NCBI GenBank assembly: GCA_037439645.1
Contig: JBBIVQ010000007.1
Span: 9,029 to 73,028 of the forward strand
Length of the DNA stretch: 64,000 bases
Direction of reading: 5' to 3'
From: Deltaproteobacteria bacterium
GTDB taxonomy: Bacteria > Desulfobacterota > Deferrimicrobia > Deferrimicrobiales > Deferrimicrobiaceae
Within the stretch, counting starts at the first letter, position 1. Each line of letters opens with the position of its first letter. The notes beneath the pieces are model-generated. The model was not told the origin of the DNA. It was given only the letters and a program-made list of their open reading frames with translations, and made no database searches. A program made the translations under genes and the position numbers. Shown here in pieces: positions 3,099-53,900 of this stretch.

Positions 3099-4214
3099 TC
3101 AACCCGGTTGCGGCCGGTATTCCGCCGCGAACGTCCCCACGTTCCCTTCCGCCGGATCCATTTCACCCGGAACGACCATCTTCGATTGGCAAGCGAGGAA
3201 CGCGGGGACGATTTCCGGATCGAACTGGCTCCCGGAGCAGCGCCGGATCTCGGCGATCGCGTCCGCGACGGGAAGGGCCTTCCTGTACGCGCGCGTGGAG
3301 GTCATGGCGTCGAAGGTGTCGGCGACCGTCATGATGCGGGAGGCGAGAGGGATCGCCTTCCCGGCGAGACGGGACGGATACCCCTTCCCGTCGAACCGTT
3401 CGTGGTGGTGCAGGATCGCCGGCAGAAGCGGGTGGAAAAACGGGATCGGTTCGAGGATCCGCACGGCGGCCTCGGGGTGGCGGACGATCTCGGCGAATTC
3501 CTCCTCCGTGAGCCTCCCGGGTTTGTTCAGGACCGCCTCCCGGACGCCGATCTTCCCGAGGTCGTGAAGCACCGACGCCCGGTTCAGGTTTTCGAGCTCC
3601 TGCCCCGCCATCCCCAGTTCCTCGGCGATGGCGACGGAGTAGAGGGTGACGCGCTGCGAGTGGCCGCGCGTGTAGAAGTCCTTCGCCTCGAGCGCCTTGA
3701 TCATCGCGTCGATCGACCGGGCGTACATATGGTTGATGATGTCGGTCTGCTCCTTCACCTTCTTCTCGAGGTTCGCGCGGTAATCGCTCAGCTCCCGCTC
3801 CAGTTCCTTCTTCCGCAACGCGTTCTCGATGGTGATCAGCAGGACGTCGAAGTTGAACGGTTTCGTAATGTAGTCGCACGCCCCCATTTTGAGCGCATGG
3901 ACGGCGGTGTCGAGCTCGGCGTTGGCGGACATGACGATGCCTGCCGTACCCGGGGACCGCTTCCCCCACTCGCCGAGAAGCGCGATCCCGTCCATGACGG
4001 GCATCTTGATGTCGGTCAGGAGGACGTGGTATTGTCCACCCCCTTCGAGCATGGAGAGCGCCTCGTTCCCGTTCGATGCCTCGTCCACGGAATATCCCGC
4101 GATTCCGAGGCGTTCCCTCACGATGGATCGGAGGAATTCCTCGTCGTCGACCACCAGGATGCGTGCCCTGGAGGAGCGCTCCCCGATCCCCGGGGTCTGG
4201 ATTGCATGGCCCAT
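3099..4214 (-). CDS. response regulator: receiver domain fused to HD-GYP phosphodiesterase
   Basis: N-terminus ILVVDDEEFLR...LLTDIKMPVMDG is a REC domain. C-terminus has LHDLGKIGV...HHERFDGKGYP, the HD-GYP motif. The stop lies 20 nt upstream of the AMMECR1 start on the same strand. Confidence 0.85.
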   Translation of the reverse strand: MGHAIQTPGIGERSSRARILVVDDEEFLRSIVRERLGIAGYSVDEASNGNEALSMLEGGGQYHVLLTDIKMPVMDGIALLGEWGKRSPGTAGIVMSANAELDTAVHALKMGACDYITKPFNFDVLLITIENALRKKELERELSDYRANLEKKVKEQTDIINHMYARSIDAMIKALEAKDFYTRGHSQRVTLYSVAIAEELGMAGQELENLNRASVLHDLGKIGVREAVLNKPGRLTEEEFAEIVRHPEAAVRILEPIPFFHPLLPAILHHHERFDGKGYPSRLAGKAIPLASRIMTVADTFDAMTSTRAYRKALPVADAIAEIRRCSGSQFDPEIVPAFLACQSKMVVPGEMDPAEGNVGTFAAEYRPQPG

Positions 4215-4292
4215 GATCTGATTATCGGCTGCGAATCCTGAAAACTTTACCGAAGAAACGGATCGGGATTCCCCGAGGAGTGCCAGATGGGT

Positions 4293-5584: not shown

Positions 5585-6199
5585 TCACTTGCGGCCCCAC
5601 TTGCCGTCGTCCGACTGGATCGCCCAACCGGCCTGTGCCTTCTCCCTCCACTGTTTCGAGAACACCCGCCGGACCTGCGGCACCTGCTCCGTTTTCAGGT
5701 TGAGGGCTTTGGAGACCTCTTCGTAGAGCTGTCTCCGCGCCGCATTGTCCGCGTCGACCAGCCTCTTCATGGCCGCCACCTGCTGCAATCCCAAACCGTC
5801 GGTCCCGCGGACCGAAAGGAACCCGTCCCTGTCGATTCCCACATGGCCTTGCCCGTAGAAGGGGAGCAGTTGACCGTGCCGCTGGCCGATCTGGTCCTTC
5901 AGCCCGCGGATGGCGGCGTTGCTGACGGTCGTCGCCTCTTCGGCGAAGGCGATCTCCGGGCCGGGTGCGACGATCCGGGCGATGGTCCGGAACACGCCCC
6001 GTTCGTTCGACGACCCGGGTTTTTGCGACGGCGGATCCTTCGGAGGCTCCTGCTTCTCCCGGTAAACGTCTTCGACGATCTTTTCCGCCGTCTTTTCCAC
6101 CTGGGCGGCCGGGAAATAGACGTTGACCGTGACGCAACCCGCGATGAACGCGAGGACCGTGGCCACGGAGAAGATTGCGGGATGAACCGGCCGTTTCAT
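5585..6199 (-). CDS. YdbL-like periplasmic lipoprotein (DUF1318 family)
   Basis: Lipoprotein signal VLAFIAGC. The C-terminal region LVDADNAARRQLYEEVSKALNLKTEQVPQVRRVFSKQW resembles the YdbL/DUF1318 family. It sits immediately downstream of the large YdbH-like gene. Confidence 0.65.
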   Translation of the reverse strand: MKRPVHPAIFSVATVLAFIAGCVTVNVYFPAAQVEKTAEKIVEDVYREKQEPPKDPPSQKPGSSNERGVFRTIARIVAPGPEIAFAEEATTVSNAAIRGLKDQIGQRHGQLLPFYGQGHVGIDRDGFLSVRGTDGLGLQQVAAMKRLVDADNAARRQLYEEVSKALNLKTEQVPQVRRVFSKQWREKAQAGWAIQSDDGKWGRK

Positions 6200-6236
6200 G
6201 CGATCTCCCTTCCTGCAACGGTTGTCGGGCGTTTCC

Positions 6237-9200
6237 TCACCGGGACCGTTCGCCGGTCACGCGCTTCGCGCGGTCCAGCATGTCCGAAAACCCGATCCGG
6301 TTGTCCGCGTTGGCGTTGACCACGTCGATCCCGGAGAAGAAGCGCCTCTTGACGAGATATTCTACACCGTCTTCGTGGATGAGGCCCCGGACGGCGAAGA
6401 CGTCGTTTTCGAGGCGGCATTCGAAACCGATCTTTTCGTAGGAAAATTCCCGGAAAATCTTCGTCATCAGGGAAACCCCGAGCCCGCTCAACCCGGATCC
6501 CGTGCCCACCAGGGAGATGGAGTTCACCGCCTTGAGGCTCACCGACTGCTTCACCCCTTTCACCGGTACGGACTCCATCTTCAGGTGAAACGCGACGGGC
6601 TGGCCGTAGGCGATCCGCATTCCCTTCAGCGTGCCGGAGAGTCGGCCGGTGACGCGGCCGACGCCCAAGGCGGCGGAGAAGCGTTCGAGGTCGAGGAGGG
6701 AGACTTCGATGTCGGCGCCGATCTCACGGCCGGGGGCGAAGGGCCGGTCCACCGCCACGCGGCGGACCTCCCACCGGCCGCCGAACAGGTCGCCGGTGAG
6801 CGCGCCGTCGGCGGTTCCCCGCTCCCGTTCGATGACGACGGGGTCCAGGATCCCCCCGAGGTGTCCCTCCAATGACGGATCTTTTCCTGCGAGACGCGCG
6901 AGATCGAGTCCGTCCAACCGCGCCGACATCCTGACACGGAACTTCGGAGAGAGCGGTTCGTCGACCTGGATTCGCCGCAGCGAGACGTTCGCGCCGAAGA
7001 CCGGCAGGTCGACTGTTCCCCCGAGGTAGAGGTGATTGGGCACCAGGACGGCCGGAACGTCGAACGGTCCCAGGATCCTTCCGTCCAGGAAAACCCGATC
7101 GAGCCGTATCCTGCCCCACTTCTCCGCGGCCGCCGGCCTCGGGCGCCCCGGGTTCGCGGCGCCGAGGGAATAAGCGATCGGCAGGTCGACGTCGAGCCCC
7201 GAAAGAAACGGGGGGTCGGTTCCCGTGCGGACCTCGCCCGAGCGCAAACGAAGTTCTCCGCTCAGAACGGCGGCGTTCCCGGAACCGGAGAACGAAAGGT
7301 CGATCCCGGCGGTCCCGTCCAGGTCCGCTTTTTCCATGGCGGGGTGCGAAGTCGACAAGGGATCCTTGAGGAAGGTCCGGAAGATCGGCCCGAGGCGGGC
7401 ATCGCGCACCGCGATCCGTCCCCTGTGGCTCCATCTTGCGCCTTCACGCCGGGCATTCCCGGAGAGGGTCAGGCGTCCGAATCCGTCCGAACCGCCCTCC
7501 AGGAGGAGGTCCGTGTACTCCCCGGGGGCCGGCCGGGTTCCCTCGACGTGAAGTGCCACGGGCGCCTTGCCGAAGTCGGCGTATACCGTGCCCCACAAGG
7601 TTTCCCCTTGACGAAGGGCCAGGTCGCCCTTGATCCGTGGACGAGGACCAAGGACCGCATCGAGCTGGATCCCGGCGCGAAGGTCCCGGCCCATCACGTC
7701 GCCGGAGGGAGAAGCGAAACCGAGACGGTCGAACGTGACCGCCGCCGTCATCCGCGGGCCGCCGGCCGCGGGATCGAGGAGAACGGCGACGTCGGCGGCG
7801 CCGGTGGGCGACCACGACGCAACGCCGGTTGCGCCGAGCGCACGGACCAGGGGAACCAGGGGCTCGACCGGCATCCGCTCGGCGGACATGCGTCCCCCGA
7901 CGCTTCCTCCGCGGAAGGAAAGGTCACCCGTCACGCGTCCCGCGACCTCCGAGCGGATCTCGATCGGCCCGACACGGAAGGCGTCGCCAAACGGTCCGGC
8001 GGATCCCCGAAGGTCCAGTTTCCCGATGGGCAACGGCCTTCCTTCATACAGCAGGTCCCCGGCCCCGACCGTCAATCCCCATCCGGGAAACGTGGGGTGG
8101 GAGGTCCTTCCTGCAAGCGGAACGTCGAAGCCGAACCGGCGCACGTCCAAGGGCCCCCGCTCGAATCGTCCGTATCCCTGGAGTCGCCCCGTCATGGGGA
8201 TCCTGCCGGCGGCCCACTCCGCCAACCGGCCTTTCAGGAGCAACGATCCCCCGATGCGACCGTCGAGTCCGGCCTCCCGATGGGAGATCGCCAGGTCCCG
8301 TGGGAGAAGGTTCACCTCCAGGACGCGATCCCTTCCGGGCGAGGAGAGGGCGAGGCGGAAGGGAAGACTCCCCTCCGGATCGACACCCGCGATGACGCCG
8401 GGCAGGACGGAATCCAGAAGAGGCTTCCACCGATCGATGTTTCGGATCGACCCGGCCGCCGTGACCGTGAGATCCTCCCATCCGGGTCCGCCGATCTTCC
8501 CGGCGGCGTGCAGAAGGCCTCCGACATCCAGCGTCCGCACCTCGATACGTGGATTCTTCCCGTCGAGGGTCGCCCCCGCCGTCGCGCCCAGCCGGATCGG
8601 ACCGACGCTCTTCCGCGGGCCTTCCGCAAGGCGCACCAGCGCATCCGGCATGAACAGGGTGAACGGGTCGGCCAGGAGGTCCGAACGGCTCACCTTCAAC
8701 GTCGCCCGGCCGATCATGCGGCCGGCAAGCCTGGGCAGGTCCAGGAGGACGTTCGCCGACGCCAGGTCGACTTCGAGCGAGGGGCCGCGAACCACCTTCC
8801 CTTGGGCCGAAAGCGTTCCGGCGGCGACGGTGGCGCCGTTTCGGCGAACGGCGAGTTCCGCGGAACCGTCGAGGCGGCGTATCCCCGCGCCCGAAGGGGT
8901 CATCCGCACCTGCAACCGGTCGGCCGCGAGTTCGCCCCGCGGGAACGCGATCCGGAGCCGGGATTCCGTCATCGAAAGATCTTCGACGTCGAACAGGCGG
9001 TTGAGCGGCGAAAGGTCCGGCGGGCCTTTCGTCTCCCCGGGACGCGGCCGCTCGAAGACCAGGCCGTTCGCTTCGACGTGCCGCAACCATGGGCCTCCGC
9101 CGAAGAGGCGGCCGGGGATCGGTTCGGCGCGAAGACGGTCCAGGCGCAGCAGGTCGCCTCCGGGTGCGGGCCAGGCGATCGAGAGGCCGGAAAGCGCGAT

Positions 9201-9389
9201 GGATGGCGGGTCCAGGGAAATTTCCAGCTTTGCGAGCGAGGCGCTTCCGCCTCTCGGGGTAAGTGCCCGACGCACCCAGGGGAGGGCCAGGTCGGGCCGT
9301 TTCGCGATCAACGCGAACGCGGATACGGCGAACACGATCAGCGCCGCCAGGCCCGCGGCGCACCGGATCGCCGCGCGTTTCACCGACAC
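6237..9389 (-). CDS. large membrane-anchored YdbH/AsmA-like protein (DctA-YdbH type)
   Basis: About 1050-aa minus-strand ORF. Proposed GTG start at 9389 (GGGGAG RBS) gives an N-terminal TM helix RAAIRCAAGLAALIVFAVSAFALIA. The protein is long, repetitive and Gly/Arg/Leu-rich, and is followed by the YdbL-like gene, as in the ydbH-ynbE-ydbL arrangement. Family assignment is by architecture and context only. Confidence 0.55.
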   Translation of the reverse strand: MSVKRAAIRCAAGLAALIVFAVSAFALIAKRPDLALPWVRRALTPRGGSASLAKLEISLDPPSIALSGLSIAWPAPGGDLLRLDRLRAEPIPGRLFGGGPWLRHVEANGLVFERPRPGETKGPPDLSPLNRLFDVEDLSMTESRLRIAFPRGELAADRLQVRMTPSGAGIRRLDGSAELAVRRNGATVAAGTLSAQGKVVRGPSLEVDLASANVLLDLPRLAGRMIGRATLKVSRSDLLADPFTLFMPDALVRLAEGPRKSVGPIRLGATAGATLDGKNPRIEVRTLDVGGLLHAAGKIGGPGWEDLTVTAAGSIRNIDRWKPLLDSVLPGVIAGVDPEGSLPFRLALSSPGRDRVLEVNLLPRDLAISHREAGLDGRIGGSLLLKGRLAEWAAGRIPMTGRLQGYGRFERGPLDVRRFGFDVPLAGRTSHPTFPGWGLTVGAGDLLYEGRPLPIGKLDLRGSAGPFGDAFRVGPIEIRSEVAGRVTGDLSFRGGSVGGRMSAERMPVEPLVPLVRALGATGVASWSPTGAADVAVLLDPAAGGPRMTAAVTFDRLGFASPSGDVMGRDLRAGIQLDAVLGPRPRIKGDLALRQGETLWGTVYADFGKAPVALHVEGTRPAPGEYTDLLLEGGSDGFGRLTLSGNARREGARWSHRGRIAVRDARLGPIFRTFLKDPLSTSHPAMEKADLDGTAGIDLSFSGSGNAAVLSGELRLRSGEVRTGTDPPFLSGLDVDLPIAYSLGAANPGRPRPAAAEKWGRIRLDRVFLDGRILGPFDVPAVLVPNHLYLGGTVDLPVFGANVSLRRIQVDEPLSPKFRVRMSARLDGLDLARLAGKDPSLEGHLGGILDPVVIERERGTADGALTGDLFGGRWEVRRVAVDRPFAPGREIGADIEVSLLDLERFSAALGVGRVTGRLSGTLKGMRIAYGQPVAFHLKMESVPVKGVKQSVSLKAVNSISLVGTGSGLSGLGVSLMTKIFREFSYEKIGFECRLENDVFAVRGLIHEDGVEYLVKRRFFSGIDVVNANADNRIGFSDMLDRAKRVTGERSR

Positions 9390-9438
9390 GGGATTTCTCC
9401 CCGGATCCCTTCCCGGCGAAAATGGCCTCTCATCGTTC

Positions 9439-10002
9439 TCACCGGGCCGTGAGGATGAGCGCGGTCTCGATCGTCGCGGCGATGACGAGAAGGGGGAAGA
9501 CGACGGCGAAGTACCTTCGGAACGCATGCTCGATGTGGAACCGGAGCATGGTTTCCTCCTTGCCGCGCATCCGTCGGAGGACCGTCACGCCGAGCCAAAG
9601 CCCGTACGAGGCCACGACGAGAAGCGCCGGGATCTCGAAAATCCCATGGGGCAACACCTTGAGGATCGCCTTCCCGTAACTTCCCGCTTCGGCGGCGTGG
9701 GTGTACAGCACTCCGAGAAAAAATCCGTTGGACGCGATGGAGAGGACGGGGAGGATCCCGACGAGAACTCCGGAGACGAGGATCAGGATCGAGCCCATCA
9801 CGTTGTGGACGAGGAGGAAGAAGAAGAGTCCGCCCCCGGAAAGACCGGCGTAGTTGTCGACGACCATTTCGTAAGCTTCCGTCGCCTGCTGCCGCACCGG
9901 TGCGGGTGCGGCGGTGCCGGCGAGAAAGGCGGCCGAGAAGAGCAGCGAGAGGAGAAGGATATACGGAGCGAGCCGCCTCTCGGGTGCGGGTAGAGGGATC
10001 AT
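9439..10002 (-). CDS. DUF95/SpoIIM-like integral membrane protein
   Basis: ATG at 10002 with a GGAGG RBS. Several predicted TM segments (YILLLSLLFSAAFLAG, FFFLLVHNVMGSILILVSGVLVGILPVL, FAVVFPLLVIAATIETALIL). Resembles stage II sporulation protein M/DUF95 membrane proteins. Confidence 0.55.
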   Translation of the reverse strand: MIPLPAPERRLAPYILLLSLLFSAAFLAGTAAPAPVRQQATEAYEMVVDNYAGLSGGGLFFFLLVHNVMGSILILVSGVLVGILPVLSIASNGFFLGVLYTHAAEAGSYGKAILKVLPHGIFEIPALLVVASYGLWLGVTVLRRMRGKEETMLRFHIEHAFRRYFAVVFPLLVIAATIETALILTAR

Positions 10003-10054: not shown

Positions 10055-11743
10055 TCATGGCTCGATGGGGGACCGGGAAAGAAACCCGTGATCCGTTTTC
10101 ATCGTCCCCAGGCTCTTGTCGTACCGCGTTTCCGCCATCAGTCTCCCCGACAGGAGGCCCGCCTGGAAGTCGAGGACGATCTCGTTCATGGAGATTTCAT
10201 AGTCCACGTCGAACAGTTTCCTGAAAAAGTACGTGTTCTTCCCCACGGAACTTCCGCAGCCGAAAATGCGGATCGGCCGATGTTCCGCGTCGGGGGCGGG
10301 CACTTTCCCCGCGATCGGGATATGTTTGTGGCCGTGAAGGATCGCCTTCACTCCGTGTGCGCCGCAGAATCGAAGGAATTCCCGCGCATCCGCCAACCCG
10401 TCCATATGCTCATAGGCGTAGCCGATGAACTTTCGCAAGGATGCCCCCAGCGTCTTTTTATGGAACCGGTGCATCTCCGGGTCGAGCCGGTGCAGTTGCA
10501 CGGGATGATGATGCAGCAGGGAGATCAGGGTCGTACGGGTCGTCCCCCCCGGGAGAAGGTTCAGCCGTTCCTCGATGGCACTGTATTGCTCCCCCGTGAT
10601 TTTTCCGCGCGCCATCCTTCCGCCGGCGGCGGAATTCCAGCAGAGAATCCCGACAGGATGCCCCGTGATCCACTCGATCCGGGGATGAACGGGGGGGAGA
10701 AGGGACGAGGATGCCGCGTGACTGCGCAATACTCCCTTCCCCCGGACGTCGTGATTTCCGGGGACCCAGATCGGATCCTGGCCTCCAGGCTGCAGTTCCT
10801 TCAAAAAATGATGGAAGTCGTTCGCGCAGATCACGTTGTTCTCGTCCGGCGTCTGCAGGATATCCCCGCTCAACAGAAATACGACGGAGGAATCGCCCCG
10901 GTTTCGTTCGAAATAATTTCTCAGGAGACCTTTCACCCTGACGATCCTCTCGATCGATTTCCTGCTTCCGATGTGGGTATCGCTCAAATGCAGCAAGGTC
11001 AGCCGGGTACCCCCATGGATCCGGCAGGAAGGGAATGCCTCCAGGTAATGACGCGTCAAGAGACCGCCCGGAGTATTCGCAAGATGGTTCACCCTTGAAA
11101 AAACCCATCGGATGGCATCTTCCGTCCTTTCCGCGGGGAGCGGAAAAAAGAGCGGTTCGTCGCTTTTTCGCCAGAGCAAGATTGCCGGCCAGCGGGTGGA
11201 TTTCGACAAGGCGGACTGGAAGGGAGGATATATATCCGTTATGGTGACGTCATTTTGAGTGGCTTTCTTCAAGTGAAGTATGAGATGCGGATCGGCATCG
11301 ACGGCACGCGACACTTTCGACAGGAATGCTTTCGATGTCAACAATTCGTCGACAGGGTGGAACTCCCGGAACCCGGACGGGATGAGGACCGCGGTCCACT
11401 CCCTTTTCGAAAATAGATCGCGCAGATCCATGACGATATCGTCGTACCGTTGGTGCGGACGTTCACGGACCGTGGTTCTCATGCGAGCCGCCGTTTCGGC
11501 GACCTTCGCCTGCGATTTCCCGTGAAAATACAACCCGTCGACGAGGTTCCCGAGGAACGCGATCAAGGTGTCCCTTACGAGCCCCGGATCGGCGATGCCG
11601 GGGATCCGGTTGCGCCTGTCCAGGACGTAGGATATCCAGTTGGCCGACTGCAGATTGAATCGTTCCGGCAAGCGCCTCTCCAGGTGGCGGTCTCCGTCCT
11701 CGGTCGGTGCATTCGGGTCATTCTGATCATACGATTTCTCCAC
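10055..11743 (-). CDS. metallophosphoesterase (calcineurin-like) with ~240-aa N-terminal domain of unknown function
   Basis: C-terminal half has phosphoesterase motifs LLHLSDTHIG, LSGDILQ, VPGNHD, GHKH. The N-terminal ~240 aa has no recognised family. The 5' part of the gene is visibly more AT-rich than its neighbours. Confidence 0.75.
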   Translation of the reverse strand: MEKSYDQNDPNAPTEDGDRHLERRLPERFNLQSANWISYVLDRRNRIPGIADPGLVRDTLIAFLGNLVDGLYFHGKSQAKVAETAARMRTTVRERPHQRYDDIVMDLRDLFSKREWTAVLIPSGFREFHPVDELLTSKAFLSKVSRAVDADPHLILHLKKATQNDVTITDIYPPFQSALSKSTRWPAILLWRKSDEPLFFPLPAERTEDAIRWVFSRVNHLANTPGGLLTRHYLEAFPSCRIHGGTRLTLLHLSDTHIGSRKSIERIVRVKGLLRNYFERNRGDSSVVFLLSGDILQTPDENNVICANDFHHFLKELQPGGQDPIWVPGNHDVRGKGVLRSHAASSSLLPPVHPRIEWITGHPVGILCWNSAAGGRMARGKITGEQYSAIEERLNLLPGGTTRTTLISLLHHHPVQLHRLDPEMHRFHKKTLGASLRKFIGYAYEHMDGLADAREFLRFCGAHGVKAILHGHKHIPIAGKVPAPDAEHRPIRIFGCGSSVGKNTYFFRKLFDVDYEISMNEIVLDFQAGLLSGRLMAETRYDKSLGTMKTDHGFLSRSPIEP

Positions 11744-11858
11744 CGTGAGAGGAACAGCTCCCGCCGCCGTGCGTGGAATCCCTCTCCCGGGATGAATGCC
11801 GCGCTGTTCACCGTTCCGGAAAATCGTGCATAATTATCCGTAAAGGGGGGGGCGATCC

Positions 11859-12464
11859 ATGCGAAAACGATCGGCGGTTCTCGCACTCTGTCTCGTGGTG
11901 GGGTTTTCCGGCTGCGGCTACAATGCGTTCCAACGGAACGACGAGTTGATCAAATCGAGTTGGTCCGAGGTACTGAACCAGTACCAGAGACGGGCGGACC
12001 TGATCCCGAACCTCGTGAACACGGTGAAGGGGTTCGCCGCGCAGGAAAAGGACGTGCTGTTGGGCGTCACGAACGCGCGCTCGAAGGTCGGAAGCATCCA
12101 GGCGACCCCGGAGCTGATCAACAGCCCCGAGGCGTTCGCGAAATTCCAGGCGGCCCAGGGGGAGTTGTCCGGGGCGCTCTCGAGGTTGCTGGTGGTGTCG
12201 GAAAATTACCCGCAGCTCAAATCCGACGCCAACTTCCGCGACCTCCAGGCGCAGCTCGAAGGCACCGAGAACCGGATCGCGGTCGCGCGCAACCGGTATA
12301 TCAAGGCGGTGCAGGAGTACAACGTGACGGTGCGCTCCTTCCCCTCCAACCTGACCGCAATGGCGTTCGGGTATAAAACCAAAGCCAACTTCACGGTGGA
12401 GAACGAGAAGGAGGTCTCCAAACCTCCAAAAGTCGATTTCGCGCCTGCGCCGGCCAAGCAGTAG
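11859..12464 (+). CDS. lemA: LemA family protein
   Basis: MRKRSAVLALCLVVGFSGCGYNAFQRNDELIKSSWSEVLNQYQRRADLIPNLVNTVKGFAAQEKDVL...NRYIKAVQEYNVTVRSFPSNLTAMAFGY is the canonical LemA sequence. RBS AAGGGGGGG. Confidence 0.85.
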   Translation: MRKRSAVLALCLVVGFSGCGYNAFQRNDELIKSSWSEVLNQYQRRADLIPNLVNTVKGFAAQEKDVLLGVTNARSKVGSIQATPELINSPEAFAKFQAAQGELSGALSRLLVVSENYPQLKSDANFRDLQAQLEGTENRIAVARNRYIKAVQEYNVTVRSFPSNLTAMAFGYKTKANFTVENEKEVSKPPKVDFAPAPAKQ

Positions 12465-13367: not shown

Positions 13368-13865
13368 ATGGACGTGAAACGGATCTCGAGGCACCTCCTT
13401 GCGACTCGATGGAAAGTCGCCCGCGCGTTTCCCGCCGGCGCCCTGGCGGCGATCGAACGGGCGATCGTGGCGAGCGAAGCGACCCACCACGGCGAAATCC
13501 GGTTCGCTGTGGAGGCCGCCCTGGACACGCATGCGCTGCTGCGTGGACAAACCGCGAGGGAACGCGCGATCGACGTTTTTTCGAGGTTGCGGATCTGGGA
13601 CACGGAATGCAACAACGGCGTGTTGATCTACCTCCTTCTCGCGGACCGGAATGTGGAGATCGTGGCCGATCGCGGGATCGACGCCCTGGTGGGTCCACGA
13701 GAATGGGAGCGGATCTGTCGGCGGATGGAAGACGCCTTTCGGCGGGGGGAGTTCGAGGAGGGCGTGGCCGGCGGGATTCATGAGATAACGGCGCATCTGG
13801 CGATGCACTTTCCTCCGGTCGCCGACGACCGGAACGAATTGCCGGATGAACCGGTGGTGCTGTAG
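13368..13865 (+). CDS. TPM-domain protein (second member of the lemA-TPM-TPM trio)
   Basis: ATG at 13368 overlaps the previous stop, with a GGGGGAG RBS. Product MDVKRISRHLLATRWKVARAFP...HHGEIRFAVEAAL...NGVLIYLLLADRNVEIVADRGI is TPM/DUF477-like. Confidence 0.65.
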   Translation: MDVKRISRHLLATRWKVARAFPAGALAAIERAIVASEATHHGEIRFAVEAALDTHALLRGQTARERAIDVFSRLRIWDTECNNGVLIYLLLADRNVEIVADRGIDALVGPREWERICRRMEDAFRRGEFEEGVAGGIHEITAHLAMHFPPVADDRNELPDEPVVL

Positions 13866-13932
13866 CGCGCCTCCGGGCATCGCCGGTGTCGCACGGGGAC
13901 CGCTCGATAATGGAAGGAGGTGGGAGCCGTCC

Positions 13933-15237
13933 ATGGGGAGTACGGGACCGATCCTGATCGTCGACGACGAAGTGAGCATCCGGAAATCGCTCGAGGGCGT
14001 ATTGGGCGACGAGGGATATTCCTGCGCTCTCGCGGACAACGGCGCCGCCGCGCTCGCCCTGCTTCCATCGCTGCATCCGTCCCTCGTGCTTCTCGACATC
14101 TGGATGCCGGGGATGGACGGGATCGAAACGCTCCGAAGGATGAAGGCCGCGCAACCCGGCGTTCCCGTGATCATGATGAGCGGCCACGCGACGATTTCCA
14201 CGGCCATCAAGGCGACCAGGTATGGCGCCTCCGATTTCATCGAAAAGCCTCTCGAAATCGACGTGGTGCTGAATGCCATCCGCCGGGCCATGGAGGCGCG
14301 GGAAGACGTGAAAAGGCCGGGCGACGGCGAACCCGCCGATCCGTCCGAATTCGGGCCGGCGAAAGGGACGCCGGAGCTGCGGCCGCTGGTCTTCCCGAAA
14401 CAGGAGATGCGTGGAGACCCCATGCCGCAACGGACGCTCTCCCGGAGCGCGGTTCTGTACGGCCAGGGCCTTCATTCAGGGAAAAAGAGCGGCCTGATCC
14501 TCGAACCGCTGGGTCCCGATTCGGGGATCCACTTCGTCGGCGTTTCCGACAACCGGGCGGTTCCGGCGCACCTCGATTTCGTCGAGTCGACCGGCTGGGC
14601 GACGACCCTCCGCCTCGGCACCACCCACGTCGCCACCATCGAACACGTCCTGTCCGCGCTCAACGCCTACGGGGTGAGCAACCTGCTCATCAAGTGCAAC
14701 GGCGAGGTTCCCGTTCTGGACGGATCCGCCGTCGAATTCTGCTCCCTCTTCGAGGAAGTGGGGTTCGAGAACCAGCGCGGGGAGTGGTACCGGATCGCGG
14801 TGAAGGAACCGGTACGGATCGACAGCGGAAAGGCGTCGATCCGGATCGAGCCGTGCGAGGCGTTCGAGATCGAGTACACCCTCGAATATCCGCCCCCGGT
14901 CGGGAAGCAGCACTTCGTCTTCCGGCTCGACGATCCCGCGACCTACCGGAAGGAGATCGCCCCCGCGAGAACCTTCGGGTTCGCCCGGGACATCGGGATG
15001 CTGCAACGCCAGGGGTTGGCCCTCGGCGGGCGGTTCGACAACTTCGTCCTCTTCGGGGACGAGGGGCCGATCAACGACGCCCTTCGGTTTCCCGACGAGC
15101 CGGTGCGCCACAAGATCATGGACATGATCGGGGATCTCTACCTGCTCGGACGCCGGTTGCAGGGGAGAGTGGTCGCCCACATGACGGGGCACACGCAAAA
15201 CATCGCCTTGCTGGAAAAGATAAGGAAATCGTTGTAA
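13933..15237 (+). CDS. lpxC: fusion protein: N-terminal response-regulator receiver domain + UDP-3-O-acyl-N-acetylglucosamine deacetylase (LpxC)
   Basis: ATG at 13933 (GGAAGGAGG RBS). Residues 1-120 form a REC domain: ILIVDDEVSIRKSLE, LVLLDIWMPGMDG, MMSGHATISTAIKATRYGASDFIEKP. The remainder is LpxC: RTLSRSAVLYGQGLHSGKKSGLILEP, HVATIEHVLSALNAYGVSNLLIKCNGEVPVLDGSA, FGFARDIGMLQRQGLALGG, HKIMDMIGDLYLLG, AHMTGHTQN. Confidence 0.8.
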   Translation: MGSTGPILIVDDEVSIRKSLEGVLGDEGYSCALADNGAAALALLPSLHPSLVLLDIWMPGMDGIETLRRMKAAQPGVPVIMMSGHATISTAIKATRYGASDFIEKPLEIDVVLNAIRRAMEAREDVKRPGDGEPADPSEFGPAKGTPELRPLVFPKQEMRGDPMPQRTLSRSAVLYGQGLHSGKKSGLILEPLGPDSGIHFVGVSDNRAVPAHLDFVESTGWATTLRLGTTHVATIEHVLSALNAYGVSNLLIKCNGEVPVLDGSAVEFCSLFEEVGFENQRGEWYRIAVKEPVRIDSGKASIRIEPCEAFEIEYTLEYPPPVGKQHFVFRLDDPATYRKEIAPARTFGFARDIGMLQRQGLALGGRFDNFVLFGDEGPINDALRFPDEPVRHKIMDMIGDLYLLGRRLQGRVVAHMTGHTQNIALLEKIRKSL

Positions 15238-26766: not shown

Positions 26767-27227
26767 CGGGGAACCGCCTCCGCAACGGATACGGCGAAGC
26801 GGGTTCCCCGGATGCCGATCGTCGCGGTGGGGGTCTCGAAGCGCGCGTTTTCGGGTGCCAGTTTTCCGATCCATCCCGAGAGGTACGCCATCGTCCCCCG
26901 GGTGATGCGTGCCACCAGGGCGAATTTCCCCTCCGAGGGAGAAAACCGGAAGGTGCGGAGAAGCAGTCGGCTTTCCGGTCCGACGGAGAGGGAGGAGTCG
27001 TCGTGGAGGATGATGCCGATCGAACCGCCTCGGCCGGTGACGAGGGCATCGCCGGCCAGGAGCTTCAATCCGGGTTTGGCCGGGAGCGATTCCTTCCCGC
27101 GCGCCACGGCGGCGTCGCCGGACGCGGATCGCACAACGCCGACCGTTTCCCCGGCGCCCGCGGGACCGGGAACTGCAAGGAGGCAGAGTGCGTACACCAG
27201 AAGCGCGGCAGTCGGAACGTGCCCCAA
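26763..27227 (-). CDS. secreted FecR-domain-like protein (paralog of 16775..17236)
   Basis: TTG start at 27227 preceded by a GAGGGGGG RBS. Signal peptide ...TAALLVYALCLLAVPGPAGAG. Shares KGTMAYLSGWIGKLAPENARFETPTATIGIRGTRFAV with the paralog. Confidence 0.6.
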   Translation of the reverse strand: MGHVPTAALLVYALCLLAVPGPAGAGETVGVVRSASGDAAVARGKESLPAKPGLKLLAGDALVTGRGGSIGIILHDDSSLSVGPESRLLLRTFRFSPSEGKFALVARITRGTMAYLSGWIGKLAPENARFETPTATIGIRGTRFAVSVAEAVPR

Positions 27228-27358
27228 TTTCCACCCCCCTCGAAGGATTCCGTTCGATTTCTCCCCTTCAGTTATACCCTTCCCCACCCTGAACGTGTCA
27301 ATCATCCGGTATCGATCGCTGAGCCACGAGGTCGGGAAACTCCGGAAAACCCTTGAGG

Positions 27359-27373
27359 GCGAGCCCGGAGTCC
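27359..27373 (+). repeat. copy 3 (15-nt core) of the intergenic repeat
   Basis: GCGAGCCCGGAGTCC lies in the divergent FecR-like/GNAT intergenic region. It is preceded by the inverted ACTCCGG...CCGGAGT. Confidence 0.55.
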
Positions 27374-27387
27374 CATGGGCATCAATT

Positions 27388-27417
27388 GTTACCGTAATTA
27401 TGAAGGGGTGTACTAAG
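27388..27417 (+). promoter_or_regulatory. conserved 30-nt upstream element (copy upstream of GNAT gene)
   Basis: GTTACCGTAATTATGAAGGGGTGTACTAAG sits 46 nt upstream of the GNAT ATG. It contains a TAATTAT -10-like heptamer. Confidence 0.45.
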
Positions 27418-27462
27418 ATTGGAGAAAATGGAAGGCGATCGAAAAGGGAGGTTCCGGGAACG

Positions 27463-27924
27463 ATGGCCGATCATCTCGTGAAATTGTACGAATTGGAGAT
27501 TCTCCCCGCGGAATTGCCCGGAGTGACGATCCGCAGGCCGATGCCGCATGAAATGACGGCGGTTCGACGGTGGGTCGTCCGGACGTTCGGTGAAGGGTGG
27601 GGGGATGAATTCGAATGCAGTTTCAAGTCGTTTCCCGTAACTTCCTTCATCGCCGTCAGGGGCGACGCCGTCGTCGGTTTCGCGGTGTATGATGTGACAT
27701 CCCGGGGATACTTCGGACCGACCGGCGTCCTCGAGTCCGAACGGGGAAAGGGGATCGGGAAAGAACTTCTTTTCCGGTCGATGCTCGGGCTTCGGGAACT
27801 GGGGTACGCGTACGCGATCGTAGGGGGGGCGGGGCCCGTAGATTACTATCGGAAAATGCTGGGGGCCATCCCGATACCCGGTTCGGAACCGGGGGCGTAT
27901 CCGGTCCGGAGAATCAAGGAGTAA
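27463..27924 (+). CDS. GNAT family N-acetyltransferase
   Basis: 153 aa, ATG at 27463 (GGGAGG RBS). Acetyl-CoA binding region VLESERGKGIGKELL. Confidence 0.75.
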   Translation: MADHLVKLYELEILPAELPGVTIRRPMPHEMTAVRRWVVRTFGEGWGDEFECSFKSFPVTSFIAVRGDAVVGFAVYDVTSRGYFGPTGVLESERGKGIGKELLFRSMLGLRELGYAYAIVGGAGPVDYYRKMLGAIPIPGSEPGAYPVRRIKE

Positions 27925-27949
27925 CAACGTTTTATCCTTGCATCCGCCC

Positions 27950-27980
27950 TTGACAGCCTCTTCTCCATAAATGGTAGAGT
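27950..27980 (+). promoter_or_regulatory. candidate sigma70-type promoter upstream of the T6SS locus
   Basis: TTGACA (27950-27955) and TAGAGT (27975-27980) are separated by a slightly long 19-nt spacer, with a TG dinucleotide (27972-27973) giving an extended -10 form. Located in the gap between the GNAT stop and the first T6SS-associated ORF. Confidence 0.3.
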
Positions 27981-28015
27981 ATTCGAATGGATCGAGCCGG
28001 GCACGGGATCCGCCG

Positions 28016-40035: not shown

Positions 40036-41520
40036 ATGGCGACAGAAAAGGAAAAGGGCAGGCAGGCGGATGTGCAGGTAGCGGAAGGGGCGTCGCTCCT
40101 CGACGAGATCGTCCAGGCGACGAAGATCAGTCCGCAGGACGAGGCGTACTCGATCGCCCGCCGCGGCGTCGAGGCGTTCCTCCACCAGATTCTCGAACCG
40201 GGGAAGGAGGCCGCGAAGATCTCGGGGGCCGTCCTCGACCAGATGGTCGCCGAGGTCGACAAGAAGCTCTCCCTCCAGATCGACGCGATCATGCACGCCG
40301 CGGAGTTCAAGAGTCTCGAGTCGGCGTGGCGCTCCATGAAATACCTCGTGGACAAGACCGATTTCCGCGAGAACATCAAGGTCGAGCTCCTGAACGTGAG
40401 CAAGGAGAACCTTCTCGAGGACTTCGAGGACTCCCCCGAGGTGGTCAAGTCCGGCCTTTACAAGATCGCCTACACCGCCGAGTTCGGACAGTTCGGCGGC
40501 CAGCCGTACGGCGCGATGGTCGCGAATTACGAGTTCGGCCCGGGGCCGCAGGACGTCAAGCTCCTCCAGTACGCCGCGAGCGTCGCCGCGATGTCCCACG
40601 CGCCCTTCATCGCCTCCGCCGGTCCCGGTTTCTTCGGGCTGACCGACATTTCGAACCTTCCGAACCTGAAGGACCTCAAGTCGATCTTCGAAAGCCCGCA
40701 ATACACGAAGTGGCGGTCGTTCCGCGAGAGCGAGGACGCCCGCTACGTGGCGCTCACCATGCCGCGGTTTCTCCTGCGGCTCCCGTACGGGCCCGAGACG
40801 GTGCCCGTCAAGAAGTTCAACTACCAGGAGGACGTCTCCCAGGGCCATGATCTTTACACCTGGGGAAACGCCGCGTTCGCCTTCGCCTCGCGCCTCACCG
40901 ACAGCTTCGCGAAGTACCGGTGGTGCGCCAACATCATCGGGCCCGCCGGCGGCGGGGCGGTCGAGGATCTTCCCCTACACCAGTTCCAGTCCATGGGCGC
41001 GACGCAGACGAAGATCCCGACGGAAGTCCTCGTCTCCGAGCGGCGGGAGTTCGAGCTCGCGGAGGAAGGGTTCATCGCCCTGACGATGCGCAAGGGGAGC
41101 GACAACGCCGCCTTCTTCTCCGCGAACTCCGTCCAGAAGCCGAAGTTCTTCGGGATCAGCAAGGCAGGGAAGGAGGCGGAGCTCAACTACAAGCTCGGCA
41201 TGCAGCTTCCGTACATGTTCGTCATCAACCGCCTTGCGCACTACCTCAAGGTGCTCCAGAGGGAGAACATCGGGACGTGGAAAGACCGCATGGAACTGCA
41301 GACGGAGCTCAACACCTGGATCGGCCAGTACGTGTCCGACATGGAGGCCCCTTCGGCCGCCGCCCGGAGCCGCCGCCCGCTCAAGATGGCCGAGGTCACG
41401 GTGGACGAGGTCGCCGGGGAGCCGGGCTGGTACCGGGTCGGCCTTAAGGTCCGCCCGCACTTCAAGTTCATGGGGGCGTTCTTCACCCTCTCGCTCGTCG
41501 GTAAGCTGGACAAGCAGTGA
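40036..41520 (+). CDS. tssC: type VI secretion system contractile sheath large subunit TssC
   Basis: 494 aa. TssC/VipB-type sequence throughout (AIMHAAEFKSLESAWRSMKYLV, PRFLLRLPYG, ...). Confidence 0.95.
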   Translation: MATEKEKGRQADVQVAEGASLLDEIVQATKISPQDEAYSIARRGVEAFLHQILEPGKEAAKISGAVLDQMVAEVDKKLSLQIDAIMHAAEFKSLESAWRSMKYLVDKTDFRENIKVELLNVSKENLLEDFEDSPEVVKSGLYKIAYTAEFGQFGGQPYGAMVANYEFGPGPQDVKLLQYAASVAAMSHAPFIASAGPGFFGLTDISNLPNLKDLKSIFESPQYTKWRSFRESEDARYVALTMPRFLLRLPYGPETVPVKKFNYQEDVSQGHDLYTWGNAAFAFASRLTDSFAKYRWCANIIGPAGGGAVEDLPLHQFQSMGATQTKIPTEVLVSERREFELAEEGFIALTMRKGSDNAAFFSANSVQKPKFFGISKAGKEAELNYKLGMQLPYMFVINRLAHYLKVLQRENIGTWKDRMELQTELNTWIGQYVSDMEAPSAAARSRRPLKMAEVTVDEVAGEPGWYRVGLKVRPHFKFMGAFFTLSLVGKLDKQ

Positions 41521-41552
41521 CAACCACCAAAAAGGAACCGGAGGGATAGGCC

Positions 41553-42056
41553 ATGGCATTGAACGCTTACCTGAGTATGAAAGGACAGAAAACTGGAGAC
41601 GTCAAGGGGTCGGTCACGCAGAAGGGCCGTGAAGGCAAGATGATGGTCATCGCATACGAGCACGACATCGTGACCCCCCGGGATCCCGCCTCGGGGCTCC
41701 CGACGGGGAAGCGGCAGCACAAGCCGCTCATGATCCTGAAGGAGGTCGACAAGGCCACGCCCCTTCTCTACAACATTCTGGTCAACAACGAGAACATCCC
41801 GACATGGAAGCTCGAGTTCTGGACGCCCCAGATCAAGGCGGCGACGGGGGTCGGGAGCGAGGTCCAGCACTTCACGATCGAGCTCCAGAACGCCAATATC
41901 TGCCAGATCCAGCAGTACATGCTTAACAACAAGGACCCCGAGTTCATGAAATACGCGACAAGCGAGAGGGTCTACTTCACGTACCAGAAGATCACGTGGA
42001 CCTGGGTCGACGGCGGTATTACCGCCGAGGACGATTGGGAGACGCCGAACGCGTGA
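41553..42056 (+). CDS. hcp: type VI secretion system tube protein Hcp
   Basis: 167 aa. MALNAYLSMKGQKTGDVKGSVTQKGREGKMMVIAYEHDIVTPRD is a typical Hcp N-terminus. Confidence 0.9.
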   Translation: MALNAYLSMKGQKTGDVKGSVTQKGREGKMMVIAYEHDIVTPRDPASGLPTGKRQHKPLMILKEVDKATPLLYNILVNNENIPTWKLEFWTPQIKAATGVGSEVQHFTIELQNANICQIQQYMLNNKDPEFMKYATSERVYFTYQKITWTWVDGGITAEDDWETPNA

Positions 42057-50951: not shown

Positions 50952-53900
50952 ATGGCCGATTCGAAATTCACGGTGTCGCAGAGGGCGGACCAGTCGGGGG
51001 TGAACCTCCTGGACAAACGCCCTCCCCTGAAGATCGTCCAGGTCCATTTCCACCATCGGTACTACAGCGGGAAGACGCCGCGGCTCTTTCCCCATCCTTC
51101 GAACAGGATTGCGATCCATTGGCTGGAAAAGGAACTTTTCCCGAAAGGCGACGCCGACAGGGACGGCGGTTCGTCCGACTTCCATTTCGTCTGCAGCCCG
51201 GTCACGCAGCATGCGGAAAAGGCCGGACTCTGGGTGAGCATGATCAACGCGAGCGAGATCCCCGACGGGTTGTACATACTGGAGGTCCCGTTCCAAAGGA
51301 CGATCCCGGGAGGGGGGTCCGAAGAGAAGACCTTCTGCCAGATGGTCCGTATCCGGGCGAAAGTGCTGGCCGTCGGCCCGGACGGAGTTCCGTTCGGCCC
51401 GGATTCCCGCACCGAGCCCGTGGCCTGCGACTGGTTCGCGGGGGACGGGGTGAGCCTCGAGGAGTCGCTGTACAACCTCTTCGCGTACAGGTACGAGGAC
51501 AGCATCGGAGTCCTCCTTGCGGAAGACATGAAGAAGGTCGCGGAGGGTGGAGAGCCCGAGTCGGGGTTCAAGACGTTCCTCGGCGTCGCGGACACGTTCA
51601 AGGAAGCGGCCGCCGGCCTGATCGGCCTCGTGAAGCTCGATTTCGGCTGGTACAAGACCGTCAAGAAGGTCGACTCCTACATGAAGGGGAAGGGGGCGCC
51701 GTCCGTCCTGCGTCTTTTCGAGAAATCGGCGCTCGGGAAGTCGGCGCTGAAGTGGTCGGACGGGAAGATCAAGCAGAACGCGATCGGGATGCTGGTCGAC
51801 AAGGAGGGGAGACAGGTCAAGGAAGTCGACACCCTCCGGAAACTCGAGTACGTCTTCGGCAAACGCGCGAAGGCGGTGGACCACGCCCTGGAAAAACCGC
51901 GCGACCGGTTGAAGGGGTTGAGCGTATCCGAGGTCGGCGAGATCGCTGGCTCCATCGTCGATCTCCTGGGGAACGCGGTCGACGCGTACGAGGTGATGGA
52001 CGGCTTCGTCAAGGCGGACGCCGCCCGGATGGATTTCATGCAGCACCTAACCCGGATGGTCGCCACCAGGACGCGGGAGATGGAGTGGGAGATCGGATAC
52101 GCCGGGGCCGGTTCGGAGGAGCGGAGGAAGTTGCGGGACCGCGCCGCCGCGCCGCCGTGGGAGCGTCACGGCTTCTTCGTGCGCGGGGATCTGACCGCGC
52201 TGGAAGCGTTGAAGATGAAGACCGATCACGCCGCCGGGGAGGCGCATCTCGCCGCCGCGAAATTCACGCTGAAGATGTCGGCGTCCGCCTACGGGATCTC
52301 CGGGCTGGGAGCCGTCGTCGGGGAGAAAGCGGAGAAGGCGTACGAGACGGCGAAATCGGTCGCCTCCTTCGTCGACAAGAACCTCGGTTCGAACGACATC
52401 GAGCGCTGGGTGAAGGAACTTGAAACCCTCTGGCACGACGAAATGGCGTACGCGTCGAACAACAACGAGATCCTTCACCGGTTCATCGGGATGCACCCGC
52501 CCTATACGGAGCGACAGACGATCGCGATGCAGTTCCTGATGCGTGCGAAGGTCCTGTACGGATTGAAGCGGCTGATCGCGATGTGCGGCCCGGCGGTCGA
52601 CAAGGACCGATACGCTTCCGTGATCTCGATGAAGGCGTACATGAAGGACAAGAACGACTGGCTGATCCGGGCCGGCAATTTCCACAAGAACGTGGACGCC
52701 CTGGGGATCAAGGAGTATATCCGCGATTTCTGTCTCGCGGACCGGTTCTGGGTGCGGAAGTCGCACGCCCACCACGACTGGATCCACCACTTCGTCCAAC
52801 TGGATCACGGCGATGCGGAGTACCGCGACGAAGTCCTCCGGAAGAAGGATCCCGGGGACGACAAGTTGTGGTTCGAGGTCGACTTCCAGCGGTACTGGCC
52901 GATCCACTTCATGGACATCGAGGACGTGCACAAGTTCTGCGAGCGGTTTTCGAACGACTGGTCCCCGCTCAAGAGCAAGGACGTGGAACGATGCTACCTT
53001 CAGCGCGGCGAGGCGAAGTGGAGCCCGATCCCGGGATCCGGCGACCGGGCGCTCGAGATCACCCGCTGGGTCGATCTCGCGGACGGCGAGGTGATCGACA
53101 GCGAGACGCCCGTCCGCGCGGTGATGATCTTTTCGGGGACGGCCAGGGTGGCCACCGGGGTCCCGGTGCGGTTCCAGGTCGAGCGGACCGACGGATTCAA
53201 CGTGCCGGGCCCCGCCTACAACACCATCGCCCGCCCCTGCTCGAAGGAGGACGGGGAAGCGATCGGCGTCGAGAAGGGACGCTACGTGGCGATCCTCGAC
53301 TTCACATACTCCTACCGGAAGAAGCAGGCGAAGAATTTTCCGGAGGAACCCGCGAAGATCTACCACGGCATCAAGCCGATGGTCGAGAGCATCGCCTGGG
53401 CGGACGTGGTGAAGGCGACCGAGCTCGCGAAATTCTCCGCCGACTGGCTCTACCACAAGGTCAGTCCGCAGGAGATGACGATGGCGGTCCGGTACGCGGT
53501 CGGAGACGGAAACGTCGCCGGCTACGCGGAAAAGAAGGGCAGGATCTTCTCGACCACGACGGAGATCCGGATGGTGCCCGACGCGGTCGCCCCGCACAAC
53601 GTTGCGGAAAAGGAGATGTTCCACGAACGGAACGAGGCGAAGTTCGGCGACCGTGAATTCCTCCAGCGGTTATGCGCGGAAGCTCCGCCTCCGAAAATGA
53701 AGTTACCTGAGGTGCAGAAAGCGCTCATCCAGTACCTCCGCGGAGAGACCTGGGAAAACCTTTCCGAAAAGACGGTCCTCCAGTATACGGACGCGGTACG
53801 GGTCATCGTCTTCGTGGACGACCTGCTGGACGGCGTTCCGCTTACCGTTCGCTTCGAGCGGACGGACCAGGGCGTCGACGGCCCGTTCTACACTTCCACC

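Follow-up and report, generated by a model that had tools for sequence, protein, structure and literature searches.

What does a gene do that joins a metallophosphoesterase to an unannotated N-terminal module, and did it reach its host by recent transfer? These questions are raised by a minus-strand gene in a stretch of 64,000 nucleotides (nt) from a Deltaproteobacteria bacterium of Candidatus Deferrimicrobiaceae (assembly GCA_037439645.1, contig JBBIVQ010000007.1, positions 9,029 to 73,028 of the forward strand). The whole of this stretch is called the window here, and positions are counted from its first letter. A sequence-only reading had suggested horizontal acquisition of the gene and linked its product to nucleotide second-messenger phosphodiesterases and phage-defence nucleases.

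The gene and its two-domain product

The mechanical list of open reading frames (ORFs), with their translations, contains the frame on which that reading was based, at 10055..11743 on the minus strand, with 562 amino acids (aa) from a GTG. Its orthologs are mostly 537–539 aa long, with the first residue two before a conserved ERFNLQ, and an in-frame TTG at 11671 in the window gene occupies the same position as their starts. Because the orthologs start there, have this length, and GGAGAGG precedes the codon, the TTG at 11671 is most likely the real start, giving a protein of 538 aa, to which all residue numbers refer. A scan for promoters and terminators returned nothing informative for the minus strand.

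10055–11671, minus strand: gene for the two-domain protein, 538 aa; TTG start 11671–11669, TGA stop 10057–10055
11675–11681, minus strand: Shine–Dalgarno-like GGAGAGG, read from the sequence, 3 nt upstream of the TTG start

Judged by sequence and structural model, the C-terminal ~320 aa form a complete binuclear metallophosphoesterase of the nucleotide phosphodiesterase/pyrophosphatase branch. Pfam Metallophos (PF00149), the sole Pfam match, scores 41.5 bits against a gathering cut-off of 21.5 over aa 249–476 of the 562-aa ORF. All five metallophosphoesterase motifs (LSDTHIG, SGDILQ, GNHD, HHHP and HGHKH) are present, and in the family alignment they are kept in 27 of 30 diverse relatives. An AlphaFold model of the whole protein, built on a 30-sequence alignment, reaches a pLDDT of 86 and a pTM of 0.90 and shows the layered beta-sandwich fold of the superfamily; the best fold matches of the phosphoesterase domain are Lmo2642, ADPRibase-Mn and Rv0805.

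10058–11011, minus strand: Calcineurin-CE-like metallophosphoesterase domain, aa 221–538
10967–10987, minus strand: motif I, LSDTHIG (D231, H233; D in 30/30, H in 27/30)
10847–10870, minus strand: motif II, SGDILQTP (D270); where most of the family has D as a second acidic residue, this clade has Q273
10748–10759, minus strand: motif III, GNHD (N306, H307)
10631–10642, minus strand: conserved CWNS (N346, S347), followed by G..MARGKI; in profile alignments it pairs with (L)NS...G of PUA-Cal and LDTS...G of Rv0805
10502–10513, minus strand: motif IV, HHHP (H387–H389)
10322–10336, minus strand: motif V, HGHKH (H446, H448, H450)

Profile comparisons indicate that the closest studied relative of this domain is the Calcineurin-CE domain of the protein known as DS-9A, MisA or PUA-Cal. 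DS-9, whose activity against phage has been validated, consists of two genes, and its metallophosphatase is essential (PMC13092281). Type I Metis is the same system; the N-terminal PUA-like sensor of MisA binds m6dAMP, and m6dAMP-bound MisA cleaves NAD+ into NMN and AMP (10.1101/2025.11.05.686725). PUA-Cal-HAD is again the same system as DS-9, its Calcineurin-CE domain turning dADP into dAMP within a filament, and a conserved asparagine of PUA-Cal, N367, is named beside the metal ligands (10.64898/2026.01.15.699771). In the profile alignment, N346 of our family falls in an NS motif equivalent to that of N367.

As PUA-Cal references we used four proteins recovered from IMG/VR contigs by their VWWGWW motif. 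Against these four, hhalign matched the family with a probability of 99.1% and an E value of 1e-18 over 263 columns, which start at family position 184 and cover the phosphoesterase domain and the preceding helix; the N-domains remain unaligned. With single sequences as targets, PUA-Cal gave E 1.1e-16 and a score of 128, and Escherichia coli CpdA gave E 2.1e-10, a score of 78 and a probability of 96.8%. The model DS9_1_antiphage (NF053862) was the top NCBIfam match for 9/9 family members (the window protein and eight distant ones), at 54–73 bits, well above the CpdA, SbcD and LpxH models and far below its cut-off of 420 bits; the window protein itself scores 54.3 bits. Two of the four PUA-Cal references were scanned with the same model and reached 530 bits, above the cut-off, and 403 bits, just below it. 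Thus, by profile, the domain lies closer to the Calcineurin-CE clade than to CpdA, and by fold Rv0805 and Lmo2642 are comparably close.

The other part of the protein is about 220 aa long, not the ~240 aa given in the sequence-only reading, as a consequence of the TTG start; the fusion of an unknown N-domain to a complete metallophosphoesterase core was correctly recognized. No family match to these N-terminal ~220 aa was found in Pfam, NCBIfam or PADLOC, and Pfam searches of 24 N-domains at E ≤ 5 produced scattered single matches only. A separate AlphaFold model of the N-domain (pLDDT 88) consists of four helices followed by a beta-alpha-beta-alpha-beta-beta-alpha unit, and the N-domain is predicted to be a family-specific module composed of a helical bundle and a thioredoxin fold without redox cysteines. 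The elements of the modeled thioredoxin fold are a strand (92–97), helices (102–123), a strand (129–132), a helix (149–156), two strands (163–168 and 174–177) and a final helix (183–194).

11408–11671, minus strand: predicted helical sub-domain, aa 1–88, four helices with a conserved RFxLxxANW (models with pLDDT 86–88 and family alignment)
11072–11407, minus strand: predicted thioredoxin-fold sub-domain, aa 89–200, without CxxC
11186–11191, minus strand: codons of W161-P162 (W in 28/30, P in 30/30)

The most conserved residues of the N-domain are R84, W92, P98, W161-P162 and F175. In the model P98-S99-G100 would mark the start of helix 1 and W161-P162 would correspond to the cis-proline loop before strand 3, and the two together may form the substrate-binding face of the thioredoxin fold. 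The start of helix 1 reads PSGF here and PSG in the family consensus, and no CxxC occurs anywhere in the N-domain; a redox-active thioredoxin is ruled out, as the CxxC active-site motif at the N-terminus of helix 1 is missing.

Base composition, descent and distribution

The composition of the gene is anomalous. Its guanine plus cytosine (GC) content is 0.580, and 0.725 at third codon positions (GC3), compared with 0.651 ± 0.024 and 0.846 ± 0.037 in the 26 other likely genes of the window. A sliding scan placed the lowest GC of 75 gene-sized windows at 10201–11900, and the synonymous-codon likelihood of the gene is the lowest of 28 window genes. Given the codon usage of the window, a GC of 0.632 is expected for this protein (z = −0.95), and the observed value lies 0.053 below that expectation (z = −3.5); the anomaly is therefore real and arises mostly from codon choice rather than amino-acid content. 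The sliding-window and codon-usage checks thus bear out the compositional part of the sequence-only reading, with corrections: GC is 65.3% over the whole window, so that the surroundings are at ~65% and not ~68%; the dip is not limited to the 5' ~700 nt and the upstream region, as it spans the entire gene with a minimum at 10800–11550; and the AT-rich string that had been cited sits at 11229–11262, within the coding sequence and not upstream of it. Milder dips (0.60–0.61) occur at 27001–28000, 41001–42000 and 52701–54400 of the window.

Recent horizontal acquisition, which had been deduced from this composition, did not hold up. Orthologs with 66–77% identity are found in 24 related loci from ~23 species genomes. 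Across 80 locus pairs, ortholog identity tracks that of the flanking genes (means of 81% and 78%, respectively), and the window is an outlier lineage for both the gene and its flanks. The ratio of nonsynonymous to synonymous divergence (dN/dS) is about 0.2; it spans 0.10–0.36 in nine closer pairs and 0.17–0.36 in eight full-length comparisons, with flanking genes alike; because the synonymous divergence (dS) of the gene is never clearly below that of its flanks in the nine pairs, there is no sign of recent exchange. In all 24 close loci with measurable flanks, window included, the gene is 3–10 GC points below its flanks. The comparison of composition and synteny with related genomes therefore gave a mixed result, in that synteny is largely found, which largely refutes a recent transfer, and the GC and codon anomaly is still genuine.

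Gene order is kept within sub-clades and differs between them (e.g., RND transporter–gene–small gene in one and 1096-aa gene–DUF1318–x–gene–SpoIIM in another), which is expected because the flanking proteins are only about 60% identical. The order in the window, LemA←, gene→, SpoIIM→, 1096-aa→, was seen at no other locus. The immediate neighbors are as follows:

9439–10002, minus strand: SpoIIM/DUF95 membrane protein gene, downstream on the same strand, 52 nt after the stop (Pfam PF01944, E 1e-25)
11859–12464, plus strand: LemA lipoprotein gene, then a TPM-domain gene; divergent upstream neighbors (Pfam PF04011, PF04536)

A recent arrival as a small island between the LemA and SpoIIM genes is, on this evidence, very improbable. 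It would account for the lowest-GC segment and the most atypical codon usage in the window, for an arrangement with respect to LemA, SpoIIM and the 1096-aa gene that, in position and orientation, related genomes do not share, and for the deficit of 16–18 GC points relative to the flanks that family members show in Streptomyces, Jatrophihabitans and a Polyangiales genome. Set against it are the orthologs throughout the clade, with identity and dS like those of the flanks and a common GC deficit, and the lack of marks of mobility: around the gene there is no tRNA within 25 kb, no meaningful flanking repeat and no integrase, and tblastn of the window protein against 50,697 phage records found no relative. 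We consequently reject the genomic island, the atypical composition notwithstanding. In Candidatus Deferrimicrobiaceae the gene is instead old, vertically inherited and under purifying selection. Possibly the atypical codon usage has been retained because selection favors poor translation of an enzyme that could do harm.

Two observations on individual genomes of the clade may be added. In two loci (L008 and L029, both at 8001–9608) the orthologs are broken into two and three ORFs, which may be pseudogenes or errors in the assembly of metagenome-assembled genomes (MAGs). The MAG MFD00822.bin.2.130 has two copies on two contigs (L026 and L028) that are 93% identical, with flanks 96% identical, which more probably reflects two strains mixed in the bin than a gene duplication.

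More than 120 database clusters are 71–82% identical to the window protein over the full length, all of them from metagenome-assembled 'Deltaproteobacteria' or Candidatus Deferrimicrobiaceae, and identity then falls straight to ≤35%. In total, 394 clusters (50% identity) were found at E ≤ 0.001 among 1.84 billion representatives. The two-domain architecture is old, since many distant relatives still align from aa 4 to about 515, at 25–36% identity across phyla. Among species-representative genomes the distant hosts are Acidobacteriota, Planctomycetota, Verrucomicrobiota, Alpha- and Betaproteobacteria, Bacteroidota/Ignavibacteriota, several Firmicutes families, Actinomycetota, Myxococcota and one Citrobacter; the Citrobacter relative had no blastn match in any complete E. 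coli genome. At 32 of 40 distant loci, and at 56 of 64 in all, the gene is poorer in GC than its flanks. The wider family is rare and scattered across phyla and behaves as an accessory, horizontally spread gene.

Some members depart from the usual form. On the conjugative plasmid pB323S2c of Bradyrhizobium barranii (locus L087, 9010–10801) the family is split into two adjacent genes, one for a 199-aa 'hypothetical protein' that corresponds to the N-domain and one for a 365-aa metallophosphoesterase, with a group II intron reverse transcriptase nearby. Three of the 30 aligned proteins (P0162, P0163 and P0195), all full-length, have lost several metal-binding residues, with, e.g., GVTD in place of GNHD and GHxH missing; since the N-domain motifs are retained, they resemble paralogs without catalytic activity.

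As the sequence-only reading had it, a DUF95 membrane protein gene lies next to the gene. Its adjacency is lineage-specific synteny: in the several other clade genomes where SpoIIM is adjacent, it lies on the opposite strand. Recurrence of SpoIIM, of the 1096-aa gene with DUF1318, and of DUF2779 is confined to the clade, where their order and orientation vary. The 1096-aa ORF (6237–9527, minus strand) has coding-like composition and no match in Pfam, NCBIfam or PADLOC; it is followed by a DUF1318 (YdbL-like) gene (5585–6256, minus strand), and this pair is conserved in six clade genomes and often found near the phosphoesterase gene, in varying order. At 13846–15237 (plus strand) a single ORF joins a response-regulator (RR) receiver (aa 36–145) to a full LpxC deacetylase (aa 195–459), an arrangement by which phosphorylation may control the committed step in making lipid A. 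Another fusion, of a receiver with HD-GYP (HD_5), at 3099–4292 (minus strand) and 6 kb from the gene, is a probable cyclic di-GMP phosphodiesterase. In one related locus (L001, 11874–17311) genes for DUF2779, a Schlafen-group-3 helicase and a MazG-like protein follow the ortholog in what looks like a defence-type cluster; DUF2779 adjoins the ortholog in L005 as well. A downstream ORF of 61–62 aa in four related contigs was dropped, because it shares sequence with the end of the following gene and the window contains no equivalent ORF.

Possible functions

We tentatively favor a regulated nucleotide hydrolase that would work like MisA, a reading that we put a little short of an even chance. The protein is a cytosolic two-domain enzyme, and its phosphoesterase would cleave a nucleotide at a phosphoanhydride or phosphodiester bond by hydrolysis; candidate substrates are NAD+ or ADP-ribose-type pyrophosphates, (deoxy)nucleoside diphosphates ((d)NDPs) and cyclic nucleoside monophosphates (cNMPs). 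The N-domain would gate this reaction, with a ligand or a partner binding to its conserved thioredoxin-fold face (P98-S99-G100, W161-P162, F175). The working would thus resemble that of MisA, with another sensor and no HAD partner. A conflict-type role is suggested by the homology to a validated effector, the rare and patchy family, the AT skew, the plasmid copy and some defence and mobile neighbors: the 150 neighbors of distant relatives include integrases, insertion sequence (IS) elements, TIR/bSEFIR, ZacA/ZacB, Stk2 and DRT reverse transcriptases. A more specific proposal, which we consider unlikely, is a hitherto undescribed single-protein immune or stress sensor, in which a small molecule or a phage protein would be detected by the redox-dead thioredoxin-fold module, releasing a Calcineurin-CE-type hydrolase that depletes NAD+ or nucleotides; the gene would have become fixed as near-core in Candidatus Deferrimicrobiota, with rare codons keeping a potentially toxic enzyme low. 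The link to phage defence and nucleotide phosphodiesterases drawn in the sequence-only reading survives at the level of the domain, through the Lmo2642, ADPRibase-Mn and Rv0805 folds and the DS-9A/MisA profile.

Several observations weigh against a MisA-like role: (i) The gene is stably inherited under purifying selection (dN/dS 0.17–0.36), with synteny within sub-clades. (ii) The context in the window is housekeeping (YchF, RR-HD-GYP, DUF1318, SpoIIM, LemA, TPM, RR-LpxC and a DNA glycosylase), and the PADLOC check for defence genes, run on the protein and four long neighboring ORFs, returned only PDC-S60 at E 0.008, taken as chance. (iii) A HAD partner (DS-9B/MisB) is found neither in the window nor among the 25 commonest Pfam families of the 150 distant-relative neighbors, and clustering of the ORFs within 6 kb at 81 loci revealed no conserved partner gene beyond lineage-specific synteny. 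(iv) The sensors of conflict systems are usually found attached to varied effector domains; among the 150 best representatives the N-domain occurs on no other effector, only with this phosphoesterase or in short fragments. (v) Defence-type neighbors of distant relatives are a small minority, as raw counts only. (vi) The copies in Erysipelotrichaceae have a conserved, asnS-flanked context and host-like GC. (vii) Housekeeping enzymes are comparably close, as the family profile aligns with Rv0805 from motif I through motif IV (E 1e-12).

A housekeeping class III phosphodiesterase similar to CpdA/Icc, Rv0805 or Lmo2642 is the chief alternative. Such an enzyme would clear cAMP/cGMP or 2',3'-cNMPs, its N-domain would serve oligomerisation, localisation or allosteric control, and it would have no role against phage. 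Taken singly this is doubtful; compared with the MisA-like reading, a housekeeping cyclic-nucleotide phosphodiesterase is nearly as likely. A housekeeping role is favored by the stable inheritance, the purifying selection, the ordinary neighborhoods, the exclusive pairing of the N-domain and a fold like that of cNMP phosphodiesterases, and the Rv0805 match, the CpdA alignment by hhalign, the sub-clade synteny, the RR-HD-GYP signalling gene near the locus and the Erysipelotrichaceae copies are all in keeping with it. Against it, the family profile matches the anti-phage Calcineurin-CE domain six orders of magnitude better than CpdA, and the NCBIfam CpdA model (PRK11148) scores 26.7 bits against a cut-off of 225. 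In addition, a rare and patchy family with an AT skew at most of its loci is unusual for a housekeeping enzyme, and catalytically degenerate members exist. A nuclease of the SbcD/Mre11 type acting on DNA ends or hairpins is quite improbable by comparison. Motifs I–III match Thermotoga Mre11/SbcD at E 2e-12, there are weak matches to TIGR00619 (sbcd), and a gene for DUF2779, which is nuclease-like, adjoins the ortholog in two related genomes; the profile matches, however, end after motif III, TIGR00619 reaches 18.1 bits against a cut-off of 77.65, and no SbcC/Rad50-like partner was recognized in the window or among the neighbors. We give next to no credence to an LpxH-type UDP-2,3-diacylglucosamine pyrophosphatase of lipid A synthesis. 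The Joint Genome Institute (JGI) label on many orthologs names this enzyme and an LpxC gene lies 2 kb away, but the NCBIfam LpxH and LpxG models gave no match to the window protein at E ≤ 0.01, and the family also occurs in Erysipelotrichaceae, Lachnospiraceae and Streptomyces, Gram-positive groups that do not produce lipid A. Both JGI labels on the orthologs, 'LpxH' and 'CpdA', were rejected as generic transfers.

Only in 2025–2026 were Calcineurin-CE phosphoesterases shown to be m6dAMP-triggered anti-phage effectors that destroy NAD+ or dNDPs (10.1101/2025.11.05.686725, 10.64898/2026.01.15.699771). The same kind of catalytic domain stands here behind a different, unannotated N-terminal module. 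None of the Pfam, NCBIfam and PADLOC libraries searched includes a thioredoxin-fold module combined with a Calcineurin-CE-like enzyme, and a literature search returned nothing relevant on a defence protein with thioredoxin-like and metallophosphoesterase domains, a combination that the primary Calcineurin-CE survey may list. If the N-domain is a sensor, it would represent a new trigger for nucleotide-depletion immunity that is testable with one gene. If the housekeeping alternative is true, enzymes with ordinary physiological roles are among the closest relatives of a defence effector, which would be a warning not to annotate defence genes on domain similarity and low GC only. The locus indicates, moreover, that vertical inheritance throughout a family of bacteria need not erase a marked anomaly in GC and codon usage. 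With the horizontal-transfer reading corrected, the gene is of moderate interest as a one-gene lead.

Relation to known systems

Compared with the established phosphodiesterases and pyrophosphatases of the superfamily, i.e., Rv0805/Icc, CpdA, Lmo2642, GpdQ and ADPRibase-Mn, the family is set apart by its 220-aa N-terminal module, which these enzymes do not have. The predicted thioredoxin fold of that module has the beta-alpha-beta-alpha-beta-beta-alpha topology in common with redox-inactive thioredoxin folds such as the b/b' domains of protein disulfide isomerase (PDI), calsequestrin and Dim1-like proteins, which likewise have no CxxC and a conserved proline before strand 3. The likeness is one of fold only, with sequence identities of 4–14%; unlike those proteins, the window protein has an extra four-helix bundle at its N-terminus and the fusion to a phosphoesterase.

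Membership in DS-9/Metis is ruled out by the score (54.3 vs. 420 bits), by the lack of a PUA domain and by the lack of the HAD partner. The N-domain of the family, as modeled, is a helical bundle with a thioredoxin fold and not PUA-like, the VWWGWWxK and TPxYY motifs of MisA/PUA-Cal do not occur in the sequence of the window protein, the inserts between motifs III and IV of the phosphoesterase are shorter, and the window gene lies in a housekeeping chromosomal context and is vertically inherited. The layout is nevertheless the same, with an N-terminal, non-catalytic module of ~200 aa followed by a C-terminal metallophosphoesterase of ~320 aa. The phosphoesterase domains are homologous from end to end, and the (L)NS...G and G(S/C)GS(S/T)G motifs are found in both.

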